Shown here in pieces: positions 15,146 through 38,939 of a stretch of 64,000 nt of DNA (within the stretch, counting starts at the first letter, position 1; every line of letters begins with the position of its first letter). Under the pieces are notes generated by a model. It was not told where the DNA came from. It searched no databases and saw only the letters and a list, made by a program, of their open reading frames with translations. The translations under genes were made by a program, and so were the position numbers. The stretch is from Candidatus Gastranaerophilales bacterium. Lineage in GTDB: Bacteria > Cyanobacteriota > Vampirovibrionia > Gastranaerophilales > Gastranaerophilaceae. The stretch lies in contig OZ006972.1 of assembly GCA_963931255.1 (NCBI GenBank), positions 1,204,421 through 1,268,420 of the forward strand. The letters are read 5' to 3'.

Positions 15146-15997
15146 ATGAAATTTGATAATATTGACGAACTTGTATACCTCGGACCGACTGGCTCTTTTA
15201 CGGAAATGGCAAAAGATTTATTCTGCAACAAATATAATATAGTTGCTTACAACCGTCCGATGCAAACAATTCGTCAGGTTATAGAATACATTGATACAAA
15301 TCCTAATATGCTCGGGGTTCTTCCTGTTGAAAATTCCATAGAGGGTACAGTCAGAGAAAATCTTGACAACCTTATGATGACAAAAAATCCTAATATCAGA
15401 ATTCTGTCTGAAATTTCAATGCCTATCCGCCATTGTTTACTGGCAAGGACAACTGAAATTTACAGTATAGAAAATATAATTTCACATCCGCAGGCACTTG
15501 CGCAATGTCAGGGATTTATAAATCATGAAATGCCCCGCAATATTAATGTAATAGAGGCTGCAAGTACTGCGGAAGCTGCTCGCAGTCTGCAAAATTACAA
15601 CCTTACTTATGCGGCTATAGGCAGTAAAAAAACAGCGGAAGTTTATTATTTGAATGTTTTGAAAGAAAATATTAACGATGATAAGTCTAACAGAACAAGG
15701 TTTGTTCTGATTGGCGATTTTGAAACGGAAGAAACCGGAAAAGATAAAACAACACTTGCATTTTCTACCAAAAATAAGCCCGGTGCGCTTTTAGATGTGC
15801 TGCAGGTGTTTATGGATTATAATATAAATCTTTCACATATTTCTTCCCGTCCGTCTAAGGAAAAATTCGGGGAATACATTTTTATCGTAAATTTTGACGG
15901 ACACATGAGGGATAAAAAAATAATGAAAACTATTCAAGCAGTGAAAGACAGAGCTATATTTTTCAGATTTTTGGGTTCTTATGAACGCGAAGATTAA
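15146..15997 (+). CDS. pheA: prephenate dehydratase (PDT plus ACT domains)
   Basis: YLGPTGSFTEMA, ENSIEGTV, TRFVLIG. ACT-like C-terminus with ISSRPSK...FIVNFDGH. Confidence 0.9.
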   Translation: MKFDNIDELVYLGPTGSFTEMAKDLFCNKYNIVAYNRPMQTIRQVIEYIDTNPNMLGVLPVENSIEGTVRENLDNLMMTKNPNIRILSEISMPIRHCLLARTTEIYSIENIISHPQALAQCQGFINHEMPRNINVIEAASTAEAARSLQNYNLTYAAIGSKKTAEVYYLNVLKENINDDKSNRTRFVLIGDFETEETGKDKTTLAFSTKNKPGALLDVLQVFMDYNINLSHISSRPSKEKFGEYIFIVNFDGHMRDKKIMKTIQAVKDRAIFFRFLGSYERED

Positions 15998-16034: not shown

Positions 16035-16268
16035 TTAATCAATACCGTTAACCAATTCCGATAATTTTATATTCAGGGCACGGGCTATGCGGTGTAAAGT
16101 TATAATTGTAGGTGCTTTTTCTGCTCGTTCAATACATCCGATAAAATTTCTCGCAGAATTAATTTTAAATGCTAAATCTTCTTGCGATATGCCGTTTTTT
16201 AATCTGTGTGTTCTTATATTTTGTCCTAACTTTATAAGTAGCTGAGCTTTTTCTTTTGCTTGACTCAT
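16035..16268 (-). CDS. XRE-family helix-turn-helix transcriptional regulator
   Basis: 77 aa. LGQNIRTHRLKNGISQEDLAFKINSARNFIGCIERAEKAPTIITLHRIARAL. Confidence 0.85.
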   Translation of the reverse strand: MSQAKEKAQLLIKLGQNIRTHRLKNGISQEDLAFKINSARNFIGCIERAEKAPTIITLHRIARALNIKLSELVNGID

Positions 16269-16318
16269 ACCACCTATTGTGGTACATTATTATAGAAGTT
16301 ACTACCACCTATAGGTGT
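16268..16318. promoter_or_regulatory. two palindromic putative operators in the divergent XRE / pilin-like intergenic region
   Basis: TACCAC-CTATT-GTGGTA at 16268-16284. CACCTATAGGTG (perfect 12-bp palindrome) at 16307-16318. Both begin with the direct repeat TACCACCTAT, 35 bp apart. Confidence 0.5.
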
Positions 16319-16329
16319 CATGGAGGTAT

Positions 16330-16995
16330 ATGAAAAAAGCTTTTACTCTTGCAGAGGTTTTGATTACTTTAGGAATAATAGGTGTGGTTGCAGCAATGAC
16401 ACTCCCTACTCTAATTCAGGATTATAAAAATAAAGTTGTTGAAACCCGTCTGGCGCATTTTTATTCTGTTATGAATCAGGCAATCAGGCTGTCTGAAGTT
16501 GAAAACGGTGATAAATCATATTGGTTTAATGAACACGCTGGAGGCTGGAATGAAGATCATACTGAAAATGCTAAATTAGTCTGGCTTGAAAAGTATATAT
16601 TACCATATATGAATGGAGTTAAATGCGTTATTCATGACGATATGTACCAGGAGTTACCTGTTTGTTATTTACCTAACGGCGGCGCGTTTGCCAGTTATAA
16701 TACTGCAGTTAACAGAGATTGGATATATTGGACCGGAGATCCCAGAAAGTGTAATCCGCATCATACTGAAAATATTGGAACTTGTTCATTTGCTTTTTTC
16801 TATAATCCTAATTCTAAATCTAATTCATTAAAAAATAGTATAGAACCGTGGAAACTCGGGTGGGATGGCACGAAAGAAATGCTATACCGTGAATGTATGA
16901 ATAATGAAGAAACTTATGACAGACCTTGTGCTGCCATAATTCAATATAACGGTTGGAAAATCCCTGATGATTACCCGTATAAGGTCAGATATTAA
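16330..16995 (+). CDS. prepilin-type N-terminal cleavage/methylation domain protein (type IV pilin / T2SS pseudopilin-like)
   Basis: Trimmed to MKKAFTLAEVLITLGIIGVVAAMTLP (ATG 16330, GGAGG at 16322-16326). Class III signal peptide with Glu at +5 of the predicted mature end. Cys-containing globular C-terminal part. Confidence 0.85.
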   Translation: MKKAFTLAEVLITLGIIGVVAAMTLPTLIQDYKNKVVETRLAHFYSVMNQAIRLSEVENGDKSYWFNEHAGGWNEDHTENAKLVWLEKYILPYMNGVKCVIHDDMYQELPVCYLPNGGAFASYNTAVNRDWIYWTGDPRKCNPHHTENIGTCSFAFFYNPNSKSNSLKNSIEPWKLGWDGTKEMLYRECMNNEETYDRPCAAIIQYNGWKIPDDYPYKVRY

Positions 16996-17023
16996 GAGTA
17001 TATTCTTTTGAGTCTGCAGCAGC

Positions 17024-17067
17024 TTGACGGATTTTCAGCAAACGTGGTAAAATAGAGTATCACACAC
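17024..17067 (+). promoter_or_regulatory. sigma70-like extended -10 promoter plus conserved initial transcribed sequence; copy 1 of a repeated element
   Basis: TTGACG-GATTTT-N9-TGG-TAAAAT-AGAGTATCACACAC. A near-identical element lies at 38192-38235. Confidence 0.6.
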
Positions 17068-17108
17068 CTCAACAAAGAATTGCCGGAAAGGAATTTCAGG
17101 CAAAATTT

Positions 17109-17744
17109 ATGAGTACAAATCCTATTATACCTTATACGTTTGTCCCCGGTACAAAGGCAAAGGCACAGGAAATTAACGCAAATTTTATCTCTGTTGCTGA
17201 CCAGATTCAGACTAATAGCGATTATGTGAACCAAAAGGTGAGCGAACTGGATGATGCAATTACGCTTGCTGTTACAAATTCAGATAATCATTTTGACGAT
17301 GTGGAAGAAACACTTGAGACAAAAGCCAATAAAGATTTGTCAAATATTACGAAACTTGCATCAACTTCTGCAAAAGGGCTTACGTGGTTTGGAACGGCTA
17401 CAGGTAACGTTGCCGCCACAAGACCTGCAGTTATTGTGACTGCATACAGTTCCGGTTCTACATGGTACAGGCTATATTCTGACAAATGGATTGAACAGGG
17501 CGGCATTACTGCAACAAGTAACAGTGCAGATTCCACTGTAACCATTACATTCCCGAAAGCTTTTAAAGATACAAATTATTCATTCCGTTACTCGGCACTG
17601 TGTAGTGATCTTGTGTATAACACATATTATTTCCCGAAACTTGATGTAGGCAGTTATACGTCAGCTAAAAATGCAAATCTGCAGTTAATGCTTGCTGCCA
17701 AGTTTAAACGTGTTGTCTGGTCTGCAGCGGGTTATATAAATTAA
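17109..17744 (+). CDS. phage tail-fibre-like protein
   Basis: The N-terminus PYTFVPGTKAKAQEINANF resembles the start of many prophage tail-fibre proteins. The C-terminal STWYRLYSDKWIEQGG...VTITFPKAFKDTNYSF resembles the short-tail-fibre C-terminal knob pattern (W-Y-R-x-Y-S-D-G-W-x-E-Q-G-G). Both matches are from memory and need an HMM check. Confidence 0.5.
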   Translation: MSTNPIIPYTFVPGTKAKAQEINANFISVADQIQTNSDYVNQKVSELDDAITLAVTNSDNHFDDVEETLETKANKDLSNITKLASTSAKGLTWFGTATGNVAATRPAVIVTAYSSGSTWYRLYSDKWIEQGGITATSNSADSTVTITFPKAFKDTNYSFRYSALCSDLVYNTYYFPKLDVGSYTSAKNANLQLMLAAKFKRVVWSAAGYIN

Positions 17745-17765
17745 AGTGAAAGGAGAAATAAATTT

Positions 17766-18110
17766 ATGTCATATACTGATGAAGCTTATACACAGATGGC
17801 AATTCAAGCCAATGAAACAGGTAAAATGCTCTATATTGTGAACGGAGAATTAGAGATTAATGAACCGGATTACTACATCTGTATCGGGAATACTAACGAA
17901 ACTGACGGAACATTAAATCCTGATTTCGGTAAAGTTAATAAAGATTTGCAAATTGCACAAATTCAGGAGCAGTTGTTTATGCTGGATCAGAAACGCATCA
18001 GGGCTGTTTGTGAGCCTGAATTGAAAGATACGGAATCCGGTGAAACATGGCTTGAATATTATAATGCTCAAATAGTTGAACTCCGTAATCAGCTTGCGGA
18101 ACTTCAATAA
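17766..18110 (+). CDS. hypothetical protein; by position and size possibly a tail-fibre assembly/chaperone-like protein
   Basis: AAGGAG 8 nt upstream. 114 aa with a helical C-terminus (LDQKRIRAVCEPELKD...YYNAQIVELRNQLAELQ). Followed by a terminator. The function call rests on context only. Confidence 0.35.
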   Translation: MSYTDEAYTQMAIQANETGKMLYIVNGELEINEPDYYICIGNTNETDGTLNPDFGKVNKDLQIAQIQEQLFMLDQKRIRAVCEPELKDTESGETWLEYYNAQIVELRNQLAELQ

Positions 18111-18117
18111 TTTTTCT

Positions 18118-18147
18118 AAAGACCGGTAAAACTGCCGGTCTTTTTTT
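18118..18147 (+). terminator. intrinsic terminator
   Basis: AAAGACCGG / CCGGTCTTT stem with an 8-nt loop, then a T7 run. Confidence 0.8.
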
Positions 18148-18190: not shown

Positions 18191-19414
18191 ATGGTAGATA
18201 TAAGACAAGAATTTATAGATCAGGCAGTAAAATTATCACGAGGCGCAGAAGTTTTGCCGGGCGGAATTGAAGAGTTAGCCGTAAAATTGCAGCACGCTCA
18301 TGATACAAACACTCCGCTAAGGGTTAAATTAGGGATGGATCCGACAAGACCTGATTTGCACCTCGGGCATACTGTTGTTATGAGAAAACTCCGAGAGTTT
18401 CAAAAACTCGGACATAAAATCGTCTTAATAGTCGGCGGTGCGACTGCAATGATTGGCGACCCGTCAGGTAAATCTGAAACAAGACCGTCTTTAACAAAAG
18501 AACAGGTTGAAGAAAACGCAAAATCCTATTTTGAACAGATGTCAAAAGTTGTGGATGTTGATAATGCTGAGGTTGTGAATAATGCGGACTGGCTCCATAA
18601 AATGGGATTTACCGAACTTTTAAAACTCGCTGCACAAATTACTGTTGCACAGATGATGACCCGCGATGATTTTGCAAAACGTTATGCAGAGGGACGTCCG
18701 ATTTCTATTCACGAATTTTTCTATCCGCTTATGCAGGCTTACGATTCCCACATAATTGATGCTGATATAGAACTCGGAGGAACTGACCAGAGATTTAACA
18801 CACTTTTGGGACGTGATATTCAAGCCGCTTACGGCAAAAAATACCCGCAGATGGTTATGCTTTTGCCGCTTATTGAGGGGACTGACGGTCTTGTTAAAAT
18901 GTCAAAAACATATCCTGAACATTGTATATCTCTCACTGACAGTGCAAAAGATATGTTCGGCAAATTAATGAGTATTCCTGATACATTGATTGTTAAATAT
19001 TTTACGCTTCTGACTGATGTTTCTGATTCAGAACTCAAAGACATTGAAGAAAAATTGAAAGATTCCTCAGTCAATCCGCGTGATATCAAACTTAAACTGG
19101 CATACACTATTACTGAAGAATATCACGGCAAAGACGGCGCAGACAAAGCACAGGCTGATTTCATCAATGTTGTATCTAATAAAGGTATACCGGATGATAT
19201 TCCTGAAGTTAAGGTAGAACAGGGCAAAGGTATTCTTGATTTACTTGTGGAATTAGGTTTTGTAGCAAGCAAGGGCGAGGCAAAACGCTTAATTCAAGGC
19301 GGCGGAGTAAAAATTGACGGTGAAAAAATTACCGATATGGCTTATTCCGTTAACTTTGATGACAGTGTAGTATTGCAGGCAGGTAAACGTAAATTTGCTA
19401 AACTCATAAAATAA
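18191..19414 (+). CDS. tyrS: tyrosine--tRNA ligase
   Basis: HIGH-type DLHLGHTV, KMSKS-type loop KMSKT, C-terminal S4-like SKGEAKRLIQGGGVKIDGEKI. Confidence 0.9.
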   Translation: MVDIRQEFIDQAVKLSRGAEVLPGGIEELAVKLQHAHDTNTPLRVKLGMDPTRPDLHLGHTVVMRKLREFQKLGHKIVLIVGGATAMIGDPSGKSETRPSLTKEQVEENAKSYFEQMSKVVDVDNAEVVNNADWLHKMGFTELLKLAAQITVAQMMTRDDFAKRYAEGRPISIHEFFYPLMQAYDSHIIDADIELGGTDQRFNTLLGRDIQAAYGKKYPQMVMLLPLIEGTDGLVKMSKTYPEHCISLTDSAKDMFGKLMSIPDTLIVKYFTLLTDVSDSELKDIEEKLKDSSVNPRDIKLKLAYTITEEYHGKDGADKAQADFINVVSNKGIPDDIPEVKVEQGKGILDLLVELGFVASKGEAKRLIQGGGVKIDGEKITDMAYSVNFDDSVVLQAGKRKFAKLIK

Positions 19415-23417: not shown

Positions 23418-25184
23418 TTATTGAGCAGCACGTTGTGCTTCTACAGCTTTAATAATGTTTACGATATTTCTAACAGATTCGTTAACTGTGCTGCTATTTG
23501 TCATCCATTTTGCGTTAAATTCGGCAAGCAGTTTATTGAATTGTTCAGCCAGGTTAATTTTACTACCGCTTTCGTCTTCAATTTCAATGTTAGATGTTAC
23601 TGCATATTTGCCCAAATCATCACCGTTGATTCTGTCAAATTCATCTTCATAAGTGCCGTCATCTTTTTGAGGCAGCTGCGGTATTGCTTTGGCACTTGCA
23701 ATGCCGAGTTGTATTGCGCGTTGAAGTAATGCGTTATAAATATAGTTCCCTAATTCATATTGTTGACTTGAATCGGCATCGTCTTCAAATGCTTCTATAA
23801 AGTCTTCGGCATTGTCTGAATTATCTTCAACAGGATTATATTTGTATTTATTCTTTTCACTTGTATAATAGTGGTCCATAACTTCTATAATATTATCGGC
23901 ATTTAAACTTTTTATTGCAGCTTTTAATTTGCCATCATTTGTGCCGCCGAAAAATGTATCTTCACCGTTAACTGCATCAGCAAATGTATTGCTGATATTT
24001 TCTACGTTTTTGTTGAAAGCTAATCTTGCTTGCGTTACGGCATCAACATCTGCCGTAAATTGTGTTCGTGCTTGAGCATCTGCTTGAGCTTTGTTGTGAG
24101 CCTCAATTCTTTCTTTTGCAGATTTCATTGCATTTTCTGCGGCTTCAATAGAATCGGCGGTACCGGTTCTGTCTGTAATTTCTCCGTTTACAACGTCTTT
24201 GAATGCAACTTTTATTTTACCATCATCTCCTGCGGACATACCTTCAGGAATATTTTCACCGTAGACAATTTTGAGGTTTTCTTCTGCGTCAGCTTTAGTT
24301 GTTGCTGTTAATTTTTTAGTCTCAGCTTGTAATGTTTCAATATTATCGTATGTTTTTGTTTCTTTTACTGATTTACCGTCTTTAATAACTGTAACTTCGC
24401 GGGTTAATTTGCCGTCATCTCCTGCGGTTACTGATGCCGGAACATTTTCACCGTATACTGTTGACAGGTTCGCTGTTGCTTCTTCTTTTGTTGTTGCTTT
24501 AGTTGATAATGCTGCTGTAACATCAGGATCACTGTCTCCATCTACATCGGTATCAGAATCACTGTCGCTGTCACCGTCCACTCTGCCATCATCTCCGCCG
24601 TCGTCTGCGCCGTCAACTGCGTCGTCATCATCGGCTTTGTTTTGTTCGGCAACTTCTTCAATCAGTTCTTTGATTTTTGTATCAATTTCTGTCTTTTCAC
24701 CCATGAGAACTTCAAATGCATCATAATTTTTAAGCCAATCTTTATCAGTTTTCATTTCAGGTTTCATTTTTTCAATTTTTGCTTGAAGTTCATGTATCTT
24801 TCTGATTTGTTCTTGGATAGTTGCTTTTTGAGCTTCGGTTACACCTTCCTGTGTTAACATTTTTTCAAGGTTTTCTACGGTTGAATCGAGTGTTTTCAAA
24901 GCAGTTTCCGCTTTTCCTAATACACGTTGATTCATTGACAGATTTACCTGTGCGTCTATAGCGTTGAAATTCATACTAGGCGCAGCCATTGGAATACCAA
25001 AGTTAATCATTCCGTTTATTGCTTGAAAATTATATGCCTGCCATGGAGCCATTGTCATTATCGAGTTCATATTGAATTGAACACCATTCCCCCATGTCGA
25101 TGTCCAGGCATAAGGCATGCCTGCTTGGTTGAGTGCTAAATTCATCAACAGATTGTTCATATCATTGTTGTATTGCCATCCCAT
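23418..25184 (-). CDS. hypothetical 588-aa protein: M/N/aromatic-rich N-terminus, coiled coil, poly-Asp/Ser spacer, tandem ~60-aa repeat
   Basis: AAGGAG 8 nt upstream and a TATAAT-like box further up. No signal peptide (MGWQYNNDMNNLLMNLALNQ). No family recognised. Confidence 0.8.
   Translation of the reverse strand: MGWQYNNDMNNLLMNLALNQAGMPYAWTSTWGNGVQFNMNSIMTMAPWQAYNFQAINGMINFGIPMAAPSMNFNAIDAQVNLSMNQRVLGKAETALKTLDSTVENLEKMLTQEGVTEAQKATIQEQIRKIHELQAKIEKMKPEMKTDKDWLKNYDAFEVLMGEKTEIDTKIKELIEEVAEQNKADDDDAVDGADDGGDDGRVDGDSDSDSDTDVDGDSDPDVTAALSTKATTKEEATANLSTVYGENVPASVTAGDDGKLTREVTVIKDGKSVKETKTYDNIETLQAETKKLTATTKADAEENLKIVYGENIPEGMSAGDDGKIKVAFKDVVNGEITDRTGTADSIEAAENAMKSAKERIEAHNKAQADAQARTQFTADVDAVTQARLAFNKNVENISNTFADAVNGEDTFFGGTNDGKLKAAIKSLNADNIIEVMDHYYTSEKNKYKYNPVEDNSDNAEDFIEAFEDDADSSQQYELGNYIYNALLQRAIQLGIASAKAIPQLPQKDDGTYEDEFDRINGDDLGKYAVTSNIEIEDESGSKINLAEQFNKLLAEFNAKWMTNSSTVNESVRNIVNIIKAVEAQRAAQ
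24117..24491 (-). repeat. tandem ~60-aa intragenic repeat
   Basis: TKEEATANLSTVYGENVPASVTAGDDGKLTREVTVIKDGKSVKETKTYDNIETLQAE versus TKADAEENLKIVYGENIPEGMSAGDDGKIKVAFKDVVNGEITDRTGTADSIEAAENA. Confidence 0.75.
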
Positions 25185-38191: not shown

Positions 38192-38235
38192 TGGACAGAT
38201 TTTGCGTTTATATGGTATAATAGAGTGTCACACAC
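38192..38235 (+). promoter_or_regulatory. sigma70-like extended -10 promoter plus conserved initial transcribed sequence; copy 2
   Basis: TGGACA-GATTTT-N9-TGG-TATAAT-AGAGTGTCACACAC. Same spacing as the copy at 17024-17067. Confidence 0.6.
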
Positions 38236-38276
38236 ACAAGAATTTCCCCTTGTTCCTCTAATGAAAGGAACAAAAA

Positions 38277-38939
38277 ATGGGCAAAAAAAGTAAATACCCC
38301 GCATTTTCTAACGGTGCAGTTTCCGTAAACGGTCAGACTATAGCAACTACCAGTAAAAACGGCAATACTGTCACCACAAATTATAATATGTCTGATTCTG
38401 AAAAAAATCTTTATGATTATGTACAAAATTCTTTTACAGATTCTCTGAAAAACGTTAATGTATTTGATGATGACACAAAAAAGAATTTACAGGCACAGGT
38501 TGACGCTTATACAAATAAAGGTTTGGATTTAATCAACGATACCTATACACCTATGATTAATGACCTTAAAAATGACATAGCGTCAAGATTCGGGAACTTT
38601 GACAATTCCGTATTTATGGATAACTTAAATTCAATCGAAAGCAACAGAGCTGATGCTATGAATTCTCTTGCACAGGACGTGTTGACACAACAGTCAAATT
38701 TGATTAATGATGAACTTTCGCGGCGTTATAATTATTTGAATTTATTGAGCGGAACTCAAAACCAGATGATAAATAATATTATGAGTTATCTCGGTGCTGC
38801 TATGCAAAACAGTTCTGCCGGCAACTCTTACAATCAGGCTAGCTATAACGCAACAAACGGCGGCGGTGGCGGGTCATCGATTGATTACGCAAATCTTCTT
38901 TCTACAATAGGGCAGGCTTTTTTAAAGTCACGATTTTAA
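38277..38939 (+). CDS. hypothetical Asn/Gln/Ser-rich protein (220 aa) with a C-terminal GGGGG tract
   Basis: AAAGGAA 7 nt upstream. No signal peptide. NQMINNIMSYLGAAMQNSSAGNSYNQASYNATNGGGGGSSIDYANLLSTIGQAFLKSRF. Followed by a terminator. Confidence 0.75.
   Translation: MGKKSKYPAFSNGAVSVNGQTIATTSKNGNTVTTNYNMSDSEKNLYDYVQNSFTDSLKNVNVFDDDTKKNLQAQVDAYTNKGLDLINDTYTPMINDLKNDIASRFGNFDNSVFMDNLNSIESNRADAMNSLAQDVLTQQSNLINDELSRRYNYLNLLSGTQNQMINNIMSYLGAAMQNSSAGNSYNQASYNATNGGGGGSSIDYANLLSTIGQAFLKSRF

Follow-up and report, generated by a model that had tools for sequence, protein, structure and literature searches.

We analysed a 64,000-nucleotide stretch of DNA from a Candidatus Gastranaerophilales bacterium (the window, to whose numbering positions refer unless given as genome coordinates of the 2.24-Mb, single-contig host genome) and studied in it a two-gene operon that encodes a predicted phage-type tail fibre and a small partner protein. 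The tail-fibre gene (17109-17744, plus strand) specifies 211 amino acids (aa), and the partner gene (17766-18110, plus strand; 114 aa) starts 21 nucleotides (nt) past the fibre stop codon. Upstream of the fibre, the interval 17024-17108 on the plus strand holds a promoter (17024-17053; TTGACG, 18 nt and a TG-extended TAAAAT), which is the best sigma-70-like site between 15900 and 18300, and a 5' leader of ~55 nt. An intrinsic terminator on the same strand (18118-18143; an 11-bp stem with five GC pairs, then a T-run) closes the operon, and neither a promoter nor a terminator lies between the two genes; with a promoter and a terminator of its own, the pair thus forms a self-contained unit. The flanks of the four-open-reading-frame (ORF) region to which the pair belongs are pheA (15146-15997) upstream and tyrS (18191-19414) downstream. 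The GC content of the fibre/partner region is not anomalous, no second copy of the fibre was found elsewhere in the host genome, and a direct-repeat search detected no att-like repeats flanking the pair; the ORFs, flanking genes, 21-nt gap, terminator and lack of att-like repeats are all as the original prediction had described them. Most likely, a tame phage-like particle with a short tail, whose putative genes lie ~717 kb away, obtains its cell-binding fibre from this pair.

The architecture of the 211-aa protein is that of podovirus fibres. An AlphaFold2 (AF2) monomer model built on a 58-sequence alignment, with a mean predicted local distance difference test score (pLDDT) of 77.9, contained a single 73-residue helix at residues 16-88 (pLDDT 77-91), the putative shaft, followed by a beta-sandwich at residues 109-210 (17433-17738), the putative receptor-binding knob; residues 1-35 (17109-17213) carry a conserved N-terminal motif, putatively for tail attachment. 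The same three parts, a short N-terminal docking segment, a helical shaft and a C-terminal receptor-binding domain, make up the fibres of phages T7 (gp17) and SU10 and the Mtd protein of Bordetella phage BPP-1, and, as in podoviruses, the fibre gene follows internal-protein genes in related phages. Consistently with a receptor-binding role, a Foldseek search of the PDB returned as best structural matches to the knob the tips of the R1/R2 pyocin fibres (6CT8, 6CL6, 6CXB and 6CL5; E 2e-4 to 3e-3), represented by PA0620 of R-type pyocins, together with a resemblance to the receptor-binding domain of the cyanophage Pam1 tailspike. In BFVD there were 55 matches at E<=1e-3, among which the top-ranked named ones were mostly tail fibres, including proteins annotated with a "gp53-like C-terminal domain". 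Pyocins, however, are contractile tails without heads, and their fibre is ~20% identical in sequence to the one described here.

Sequence searches with the fibre itself were less productive. A Pfam scan gave Gp53-like_C (PF21882) at residues 128-169 with 16.5 bits and E 0.012, below the 24.9-bit cut-off, while homologues sharing the knob passed that threshold (P0008, 36.7 bits; many PF21882-tagged matches), so that the Pfam check proposed with the original prediction came out negative for the two proteins themselves (the partner had no match) and positive for the relatives of the knob. The shared knob motif is GSTWYR..SDxWxEQGG...TFPKAFxxTNY...WxAxGY, and the gene of one knob-sharing protein comes immediately after that for the tape measure in a siphovirus tail module. 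PHROG searches of fibre and partner were weak or empty, phmmer of the fibre against the PDB found nothing, tblastn against INPHARED yielded one weak match, and a single-sequence scan of IMG/VR with the fibre found nothing; viral relatives were reached only through an alignment of the N-terminus (A2).

This N-terminus is the part that ties the protein to phages. Its motif, PYxFxPGTKAKAxEVNxNF, has invariant residues F11, P13, G14, K16, A17, A19, N23, N25 and F26, and a profile of the N-terminal 55 residues retrieved 15 IMG/VR contigs with GC contents of 30-68%, in which the motif forms the very start of proteins of 160-402 aa. In the contigs read, the motif-bearing protein directly follows a giant internal-type or a nozzle-like protein; a nozzle-like gene was present in every case in which sequence upstream of the fibre was available and could be searched, and in a 66%-GC contig it directly precedes the fibre. 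As in BPP-1, a reverse transcriptase can follow an Mtd-like protein among the proteins that share this N-terminus: one of the two contigs tested for the Mtd second domain (mtd_2nd in Pfam; L049 and L056) carries it in its motif protein (L049), and a reverse transcriptase follows the motif protein in both (L049, 4398-7239; L056, 9995-12842). Because of this adjacency the two motif proteins are likely targets of diversity-generating retroelements and hence receptor-binding proteins. Unlike T7 gp17 and Mtd, the fibre N-terminus matched neither the Phage_T7_tail nor the Mtd_N Pfam family at E<=1, and the 211-aa protein is much shorter and encoded away from tail genes. The N-terminal profile A2 also found no relative in the PDB, and with neither a Pfam nor a PDB match the fibre N-terminus appears to be an undescribed type of adaptor. 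Its relatives are almost all labelled Candidatus Gastranaerophilales or Melainabacteria. Taken together, sequence and structural model identify the 211-aa product as a podovirus-type, receptor-binding tail fibre, and the knob fold and viral N-terminal motif bear out the earlier proposal of a tail-fibre-type protein with a co-transcribed small partner. In this genome the fibre lies outside any tail module, whereas it stands beside tail genes in genome G140 and in the viral contigs L044-L056 (here and below, G-numbers denote genomes of the family, g-numbers genera and L-numbers contigs or loci; phyletic counts refer to 121 sampled genomes of the family).

The 114-aa partner was directly downstream of the fibre in all relatives read. 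Its N-terminal half is variable, and its C-terminal half carries an invariant motif, LDxKRIRAxCEPE...TWLEYYN...LR, in 30 homologues; variants from other genera matched a phage ORF that itself follows a fibre (1e-12 to 1e-22). R-type pyocin fibre PA0620 is likewise followed by a small gene, that of its chaperone PA0621. By its position the partner probably helps the fibre to fold or assemble, but unlike the pyocin chaperone it matched no known chaperone family in sequence or fold (Caudo_TAP, T4 gp38/gp57-like). It had no match in Pfam or PHROG and none in the PDB with profile A4, and its AF2 model had none in BFVD at E<=1e-3.

Another phage gene is detached in the same way as the fibre. The core of the fibre promoter and early leader (23 nt), TGGTAWAATAGAGTRTCACACAC, had one other match in the genome, with two mismatches, upstream of position 38277; it belongs to a second copy of promoter plus leader (38192-38276, plus strand) in front of a gene for a 220-aa protein (38277-38939, plus strand; ivp220). 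Its homologues are proteins of 226-298 aa in the phage contigs that also carry the fibre motif (blastp 1e-7, phmmer 5e-8), where the gene comes after the nozzle/acetyltransferase genes and before the giant proteins upstream of the fibre; by that position the 220-aa protein resembles a small internal or ejection protein in the slot of T7 gp14. When the window was compared with the related phage contigs, the fibre and this gene were its sole matches. In genomes G020 and G024 the leaders of the fibre and of the 220-aa gene are again alike, with a different, genus-specific sequence (ACGCCTTATTAA-type), and this covariation by genus indicates concerted evolution of a common control element. The 220-aa gene occurs in exactly the same 73 of the 121 genomes as the fibre N-terminus, even though the two are ~20 kb apart here and lie on different contigs in some genomes.

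A comparison of the proteins of low-GC viral contigs with the whole genome revealed where the remaining particle genes may reside. Besides two myovirus-type prophages, it matched the fibre, the 38277-38939 ORF and a 10.7-kb podovirus-like cluster at genome coordinates 494,033-504,750, ~717 kb from the fibre and ~700 kb upstream of the window start. According to PHROG and Pfam assignments (the latter including SU10_adaptor and SU10_portal), its gene products begin with a Zn-ribbon protein and a 68-aa LuxR-type helix-turn-helix (HTH) protein. Next come an amidase, a 504-aa nozzle-like protein, the major head protein (phrog_267, 1e-52) and, after two small proteins, an SU10-type adaptor (212-aa type). 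TerS, a 119-aa protein and an acetyltransferase follow, then an SU10/T7-type portal, an acidic 157-aa protein, TerL and, last, a holin-like protein. The first two genes could be regulators. No integrase, repressor, replication or lysogeny gene and no fibre was found in the ORF map of the cluster, which thus combines structural, packaging and lysis genes without those for replication, integration or lysogeny, as expected of a gene transfer agent (GTA). In phage contigs L050 and L051 the capsid, adaptor (212-aa type), nozzle (504-aa type), acetyltransferase, 220-aa-type, 677-aa, 967-aa and fibre genes follow each other contiguously, in a T7/SU10 layout; since these phages carry the parts side by side, the host can be read as holding the same parts list with the 220-aa gene and the fibre detached.

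The cluster is collinear in most of 12 other genomes examined, from at least nine genera, and the same upstream host genes adjoin it in G001, G020, G024 and G033. Its capsid protein had strong matches (40-92% identity) in 63 of the 121 genomes, mostly as a single copy, and was 73-92% identical across most of the genera that carry the gene, tracking host divergence. Collinearity and capsid identity thus point to vertical inheritance and purifying selection across the host clade, a second property expected of a GTA, and the cluster is by all indications from its genes a domesticated, fixed and vertically inherited element of the host. We considered whether the 547-aa gene that follows it (504,869-506,512) is part of the element and rejected this, as the gene belongs to a 14-copy host family present in 119 of the 121 genomes and has no phage match. 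That protein starts with MGLAASQARFLAITARK; a single genome can have as many as 16 matches to it, its N- and C-terminal parts are conserved around a variable middle, and it has no Pfam match. The host's own prophages were likewise rejected as a source of the fibre, since they have sheath and baseplate genes and unrelated fibres. They are two ordinary contractile-tailed elements at ~605-643 kb (Mu-like, with a transposase) and ~659-691 kb (with a serine recombinase) of the genome; in one of them an ORF homologous to the reverse transcriptases of L049 and L056 follows an unrelated 550-aa fibre (684,989-688,311).

Two natural variants connect the fibre with the cluster. In G140 the cluster itself contains, between its amidase and nozzle genes, the genes for a fibre of 185 aa that shares the N-terminus and for a partner of 128 aa, with overlapping stop and start codons. 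The fibre N-terminus was present in 60 of the 63 capsid-bearing genomes, and the three that lack it all belong to genus g31 (G033, G106 and G138) and lack the 220-aa gene as well. In the only g31 cluster examined, that of G033 (L070), the nozzle, acetyltransferase and holin genes are cleanly deleted while the capsid, portal, adaptor, terminase and amidase genes remain 43-83% identical, so that it looks like a tail-less derivative still under selection.

We then considered how the pair itself has been maintained. Fibre orthologues are full-length in all three genomes of the same genus, at 59-73% identity, compared with 97% for tyrS and 95% for pheA, and the promoter and leader are nearly invariant among these three. 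In other genera the N-terminus is kept while shafts and knobs differ, in ORFs of 190 to ~950 aa. The synteny check suggested earlier found tyrS next to the pair in several genera, in most cases with pheA on the other side: pheA and tyrS flank it in G001, G020, G024, G023 and the metagenomic contig L043, while it adjoins tyrS in G002, G003, G022 and L071-L073, and sits between pheA and cysE in L074; elsewhere it is found between other housekeeping genes without phage neighbours. In genera g15 and g29 (L024 of G017; L032 of G031), which lack the cluster, the pair occupies a different conserved site, where a carbon-nitrogen-hydrolase-like gene and a gene for a 392-414-aa uncharacterised protein adjoin it. 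Because synonymous divergence (dS) within the genus is saturated (~1 or more) and the ratio of nonsynonymous divergence (dN) to dS accordingly rough, we report the proportions of nonsynonymous (pN) and synonymous (pS) differences. The fibre had a pN of 0.16-0.28 against a pS of 0.61-0.74 (tyrS pN 0.02), which gives a pN/pS of ~0.25-0.45 overall and ~0.07-0.2 in the N-terminus; residues 1-35 and 91-160 are the most constrained, and residues 36-90 and 161-211 evolve fastest.

These data bear on two readings in which the host makes no use of the pair. The absence of other phage genes within tens of kb could suggest the last inert remnant of a decayed prophage, one of the two possibilities raised by the original prediction. 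But the same site is occupied across genera with no prophage there in related genomes, the promoter is conserved and the gene is under purifying selection, which excludes a decaying remnant and makes this the least credible of the explanations considered; the other part of that prediction, an intact ORF behind its own conserved promoter and maintained by selection, held. Alternatively, the pair could be a phage-shuttled cassette that recombines recurrently with infecting phages at a permissive site and persists by re-deposition and not by use to the host. Knobs and the N-terminal halves of the partner are indeed modular and differ between species of one genus, knobs have been exchanged from one species to another, phages and prophages contain these knob and partner modules too, and dN of the shaft and distal knob is ~10 times that of tyrS. 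Passive deposition is nevertheless improbable, as the N-terminus, promoter/leader and chromosomal site are conserved within and between genera, the ORFs are intact in the more than 20 genomes read, and a perfect co-occurrence with the unlinked 220-aa gene is hard to explain in this way.

The remaining two ORFs of the region are an XRE-type regulator gene (16035-16268, minus strand; 77 aa; HTH_3, E 1e-11) and a pilin-like gene (16315-16995, plus strand; 226 aa; N_methyl and DUF6613). Their adjacency, seen in this genome only, and the lectin-like knob of the fibre could be taken to indicate a domesticated adhesin on the cell's own surface, possibly acting with the pilin-like protein under control of the XRE regulator. 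This is very improbable: on reading its sequence, without a predictor, we saw no obvious N-terminal signal peptide in the fibre, and the fibre's own promoter lies downstream of the stop codon of the pilin-like gene. The two neighbours form a divergent, dispersed multi-copy cassette: the genome has 20 pilin paralogues, of which nine or more are paired head-to-head with an XRE gene. The cassette is missing from the pheA-fibre interval in same-genus genome G001 and in other genera. They are unrelated to the fibre pair, and the link to the pilin-like protein suggested earlier is not upheld. The XRE/prepilin family is expanded across the host genome, with further copies at, for example, 1335267-1336301, 377532-378596 and 1570300-1571319 (genome coordinates).

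The interpretation that we prefer, with moderate confidence, makes the pair the receptor-binding module, encoded in trans, of a domesticated, podovirus-like particle system with several loci. This system would comprise at least three dispersed loci of the Gastranaerophilaceae, namely the head cluster, the fibre with its partner, and the 220-aa gene. The N-terminal adaptor of the fibre would dock on the tail, presumably at the adaptor/nozzle junction, the helical shaft would be trimeric, and the C-terminal knob would bind a surface receptor; the fibre would thereby arm the particles and set which cells are bound, with a fast-evolving knob that species exchange among themselves. On this view the host would make particles and may transfer DNA with them, and the system is possibly a GTA-like one that has so far gone undescribed. 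The original prediction had favoured a receptor-binding protein working outside a phage context; a fixed, fibre-less cluster ~717 kb away and a second phage gene behind the fibre's promoter speak against that proposal.

Several observations weigh against a particle of this kind. No host homologue of the large 677-, 967- and 1300-aa internal proteins of the phages was found, and no copy of the promoter-leader motif shared by the fibre and the 220-aa gene was found in the intergenic regions of the head cluster. Moreover, a cluster capsid gene is missing from 13 of the 73 genomes that carry both the fibre and the 220-aa gene; the five of them that were tested, near-complete at 98-99%, are also without TerL and the nozzle protein, and in three of the five neither of two terminase family models found a match. 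In cluster-less g15, the first 40 codons of the fibre nonetheless had a pN of 0.08-0.10 against a pS of 0.60-0.72, and its three species carry different knobs, so that swapping continues; with its N-terminus still constrained there, the fibre appears to be maintained without its presumed docking partner. As candidates for the missing giant internal proteins we considered the 1,779-aa (2377-7716) and 588-aa (23418-25184) proteins of the window and rejected both, as their hhalign probabilities against the phage 677-, 967-, 1300- and 300-aa protein groups were below 1%; the 588-aa protein is essentially confined to one genus.

These same observations suggest another possibility, in which the fibre, the partner and the 220-aa gene form a two-locus regulon of their own that needs no host heads. 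In addition to the constraint in g15, it would account for the complete co-occurrence of the fibre N-terminus and the 220-aa gene (73 of 73 genomes, the 13 capsid-less ones included) and for a promoter/leader that co-evolves between the two genes from genus to genus while missing from the head cluster; the promoter is, besides, a near-consensus housekeeping type, not obviously induced, and related free podoviruses with the same adaptor motif circulate. We nevertheless regard this as unlikely, although it is the alternative that we take most seriously. The G140 pair is embedded in a head cluster, and in g31 the fibre and 220-aa genes are missing and the examined cluster has no nozzle gene, which argues that the three work with the cluster. 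Head loss may also be recent in some species: sister species retain the cluster in g57, g72 and g76, and several losses therefore look recent, whereas in g15 and g29 the cluster is missing in all three sampled species. In its most concrete form the proposal is that the two proteins, made from strong promoters, act as structural decoys: when related podoviruses infect, their progeny would incorporate these proteins by way of the N-terminal adaptor and the core-protein fold, yielding virions that bind or eject poorly on kin cells. Such a stand-alone, co-regulated two-locus host system without a host capsid, crippling podovirus adsorption or ejection, would explain why only these two add-on virion parts persist in head-less lineages. 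It is somewhat less likely again. A folded, selected and often exchanged knob with a dedicated partner is not obviously needed in a decoy, and we found no precedent for such a defence, in searches of which none was aimed at defence families.

The closest known analogues of the proposed particle system are two GTAs. The 24 genes of RcGTA of Rhodobacter capsulatus occupy five loci. Its tail-fibre gene (rcc00171) and head-spike genes (rcc01079/01080) lie away from the structural cluster, and the loci for recognition show faster evolution and exchange with phages (Hynes et al. 2016, PMC5026251). As in RcGTA, the host lineage has fixed a small structural cluster of phage type that lacks genes for replication and integration, and the putative recognition genes lie hundreds of kb away, evolve faster and are exchanged with phages. 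In contrast, RcGTA is siphovirus-like and alphaproteobacterial, and no protein described here is homologous to it; its loci have been demonstrated to be co-regulated and required, whereas here the fibre and the 220-aa gene alone share a promoter and the system is known from its genes alone. Unlike in RcGTA, moreover, the detached genes persist here in lineages without the cluster.

FpGTA of Faecalibacterium prausnitzii has in its operon I (10.5 kb) the genes for TerS, TerL, portal, scaffold and capsid, and in a separate operon II those for baseplate, tail fibre, receptor-binding protein (RBP), holin and endolysin; it is podovirus-like, and particles, ~9-kb DNA fragments and the particle proteome have been demonstrated (Borodovich et al. 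2026, PMC12946183). The system proposed here likewise belongs to a gut bacterium and has a ~10-kb head and packaging cluster of short-tailed-phage type with the fibre/RBP at a second locus, and in both cases some strains carry one of the two loci only. The hosts are of different phyla and the likeness drawn here is one of organisation, our system being described at the level of genes; furthermore, its lysis genes sit with the heads, and its second locus holds the fibre and partner only. The FpGTA paper makes no mention of Melainabacteria (PMC12946183), and in the literature we found no published description of GTAs or of such prophages in that group.

GTA-like particles are known from a handful of lineages. 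If our interpretation is correct, the locus between pheA and tyrS would be the receptor-binding part of such a system in Melainabacteria, the non-photosynthetic gut cyanobacteria, with a "genome" that, like those of RcGTA and FpGTA, is divided, here among at least three loci. The fibre and one internal virion protein are retained in exact step even in genomes without heads, which could also point to a new use of phage structural proteins. The N-terminal motif of the fibre and the C-terminal motif of the partner provide simple markers for finding such modules in metagenomes. Should the particle exist as proposed, its knob would decide which cells are paired as donor and recipient of DNA in a common, uncultured gut lineage.

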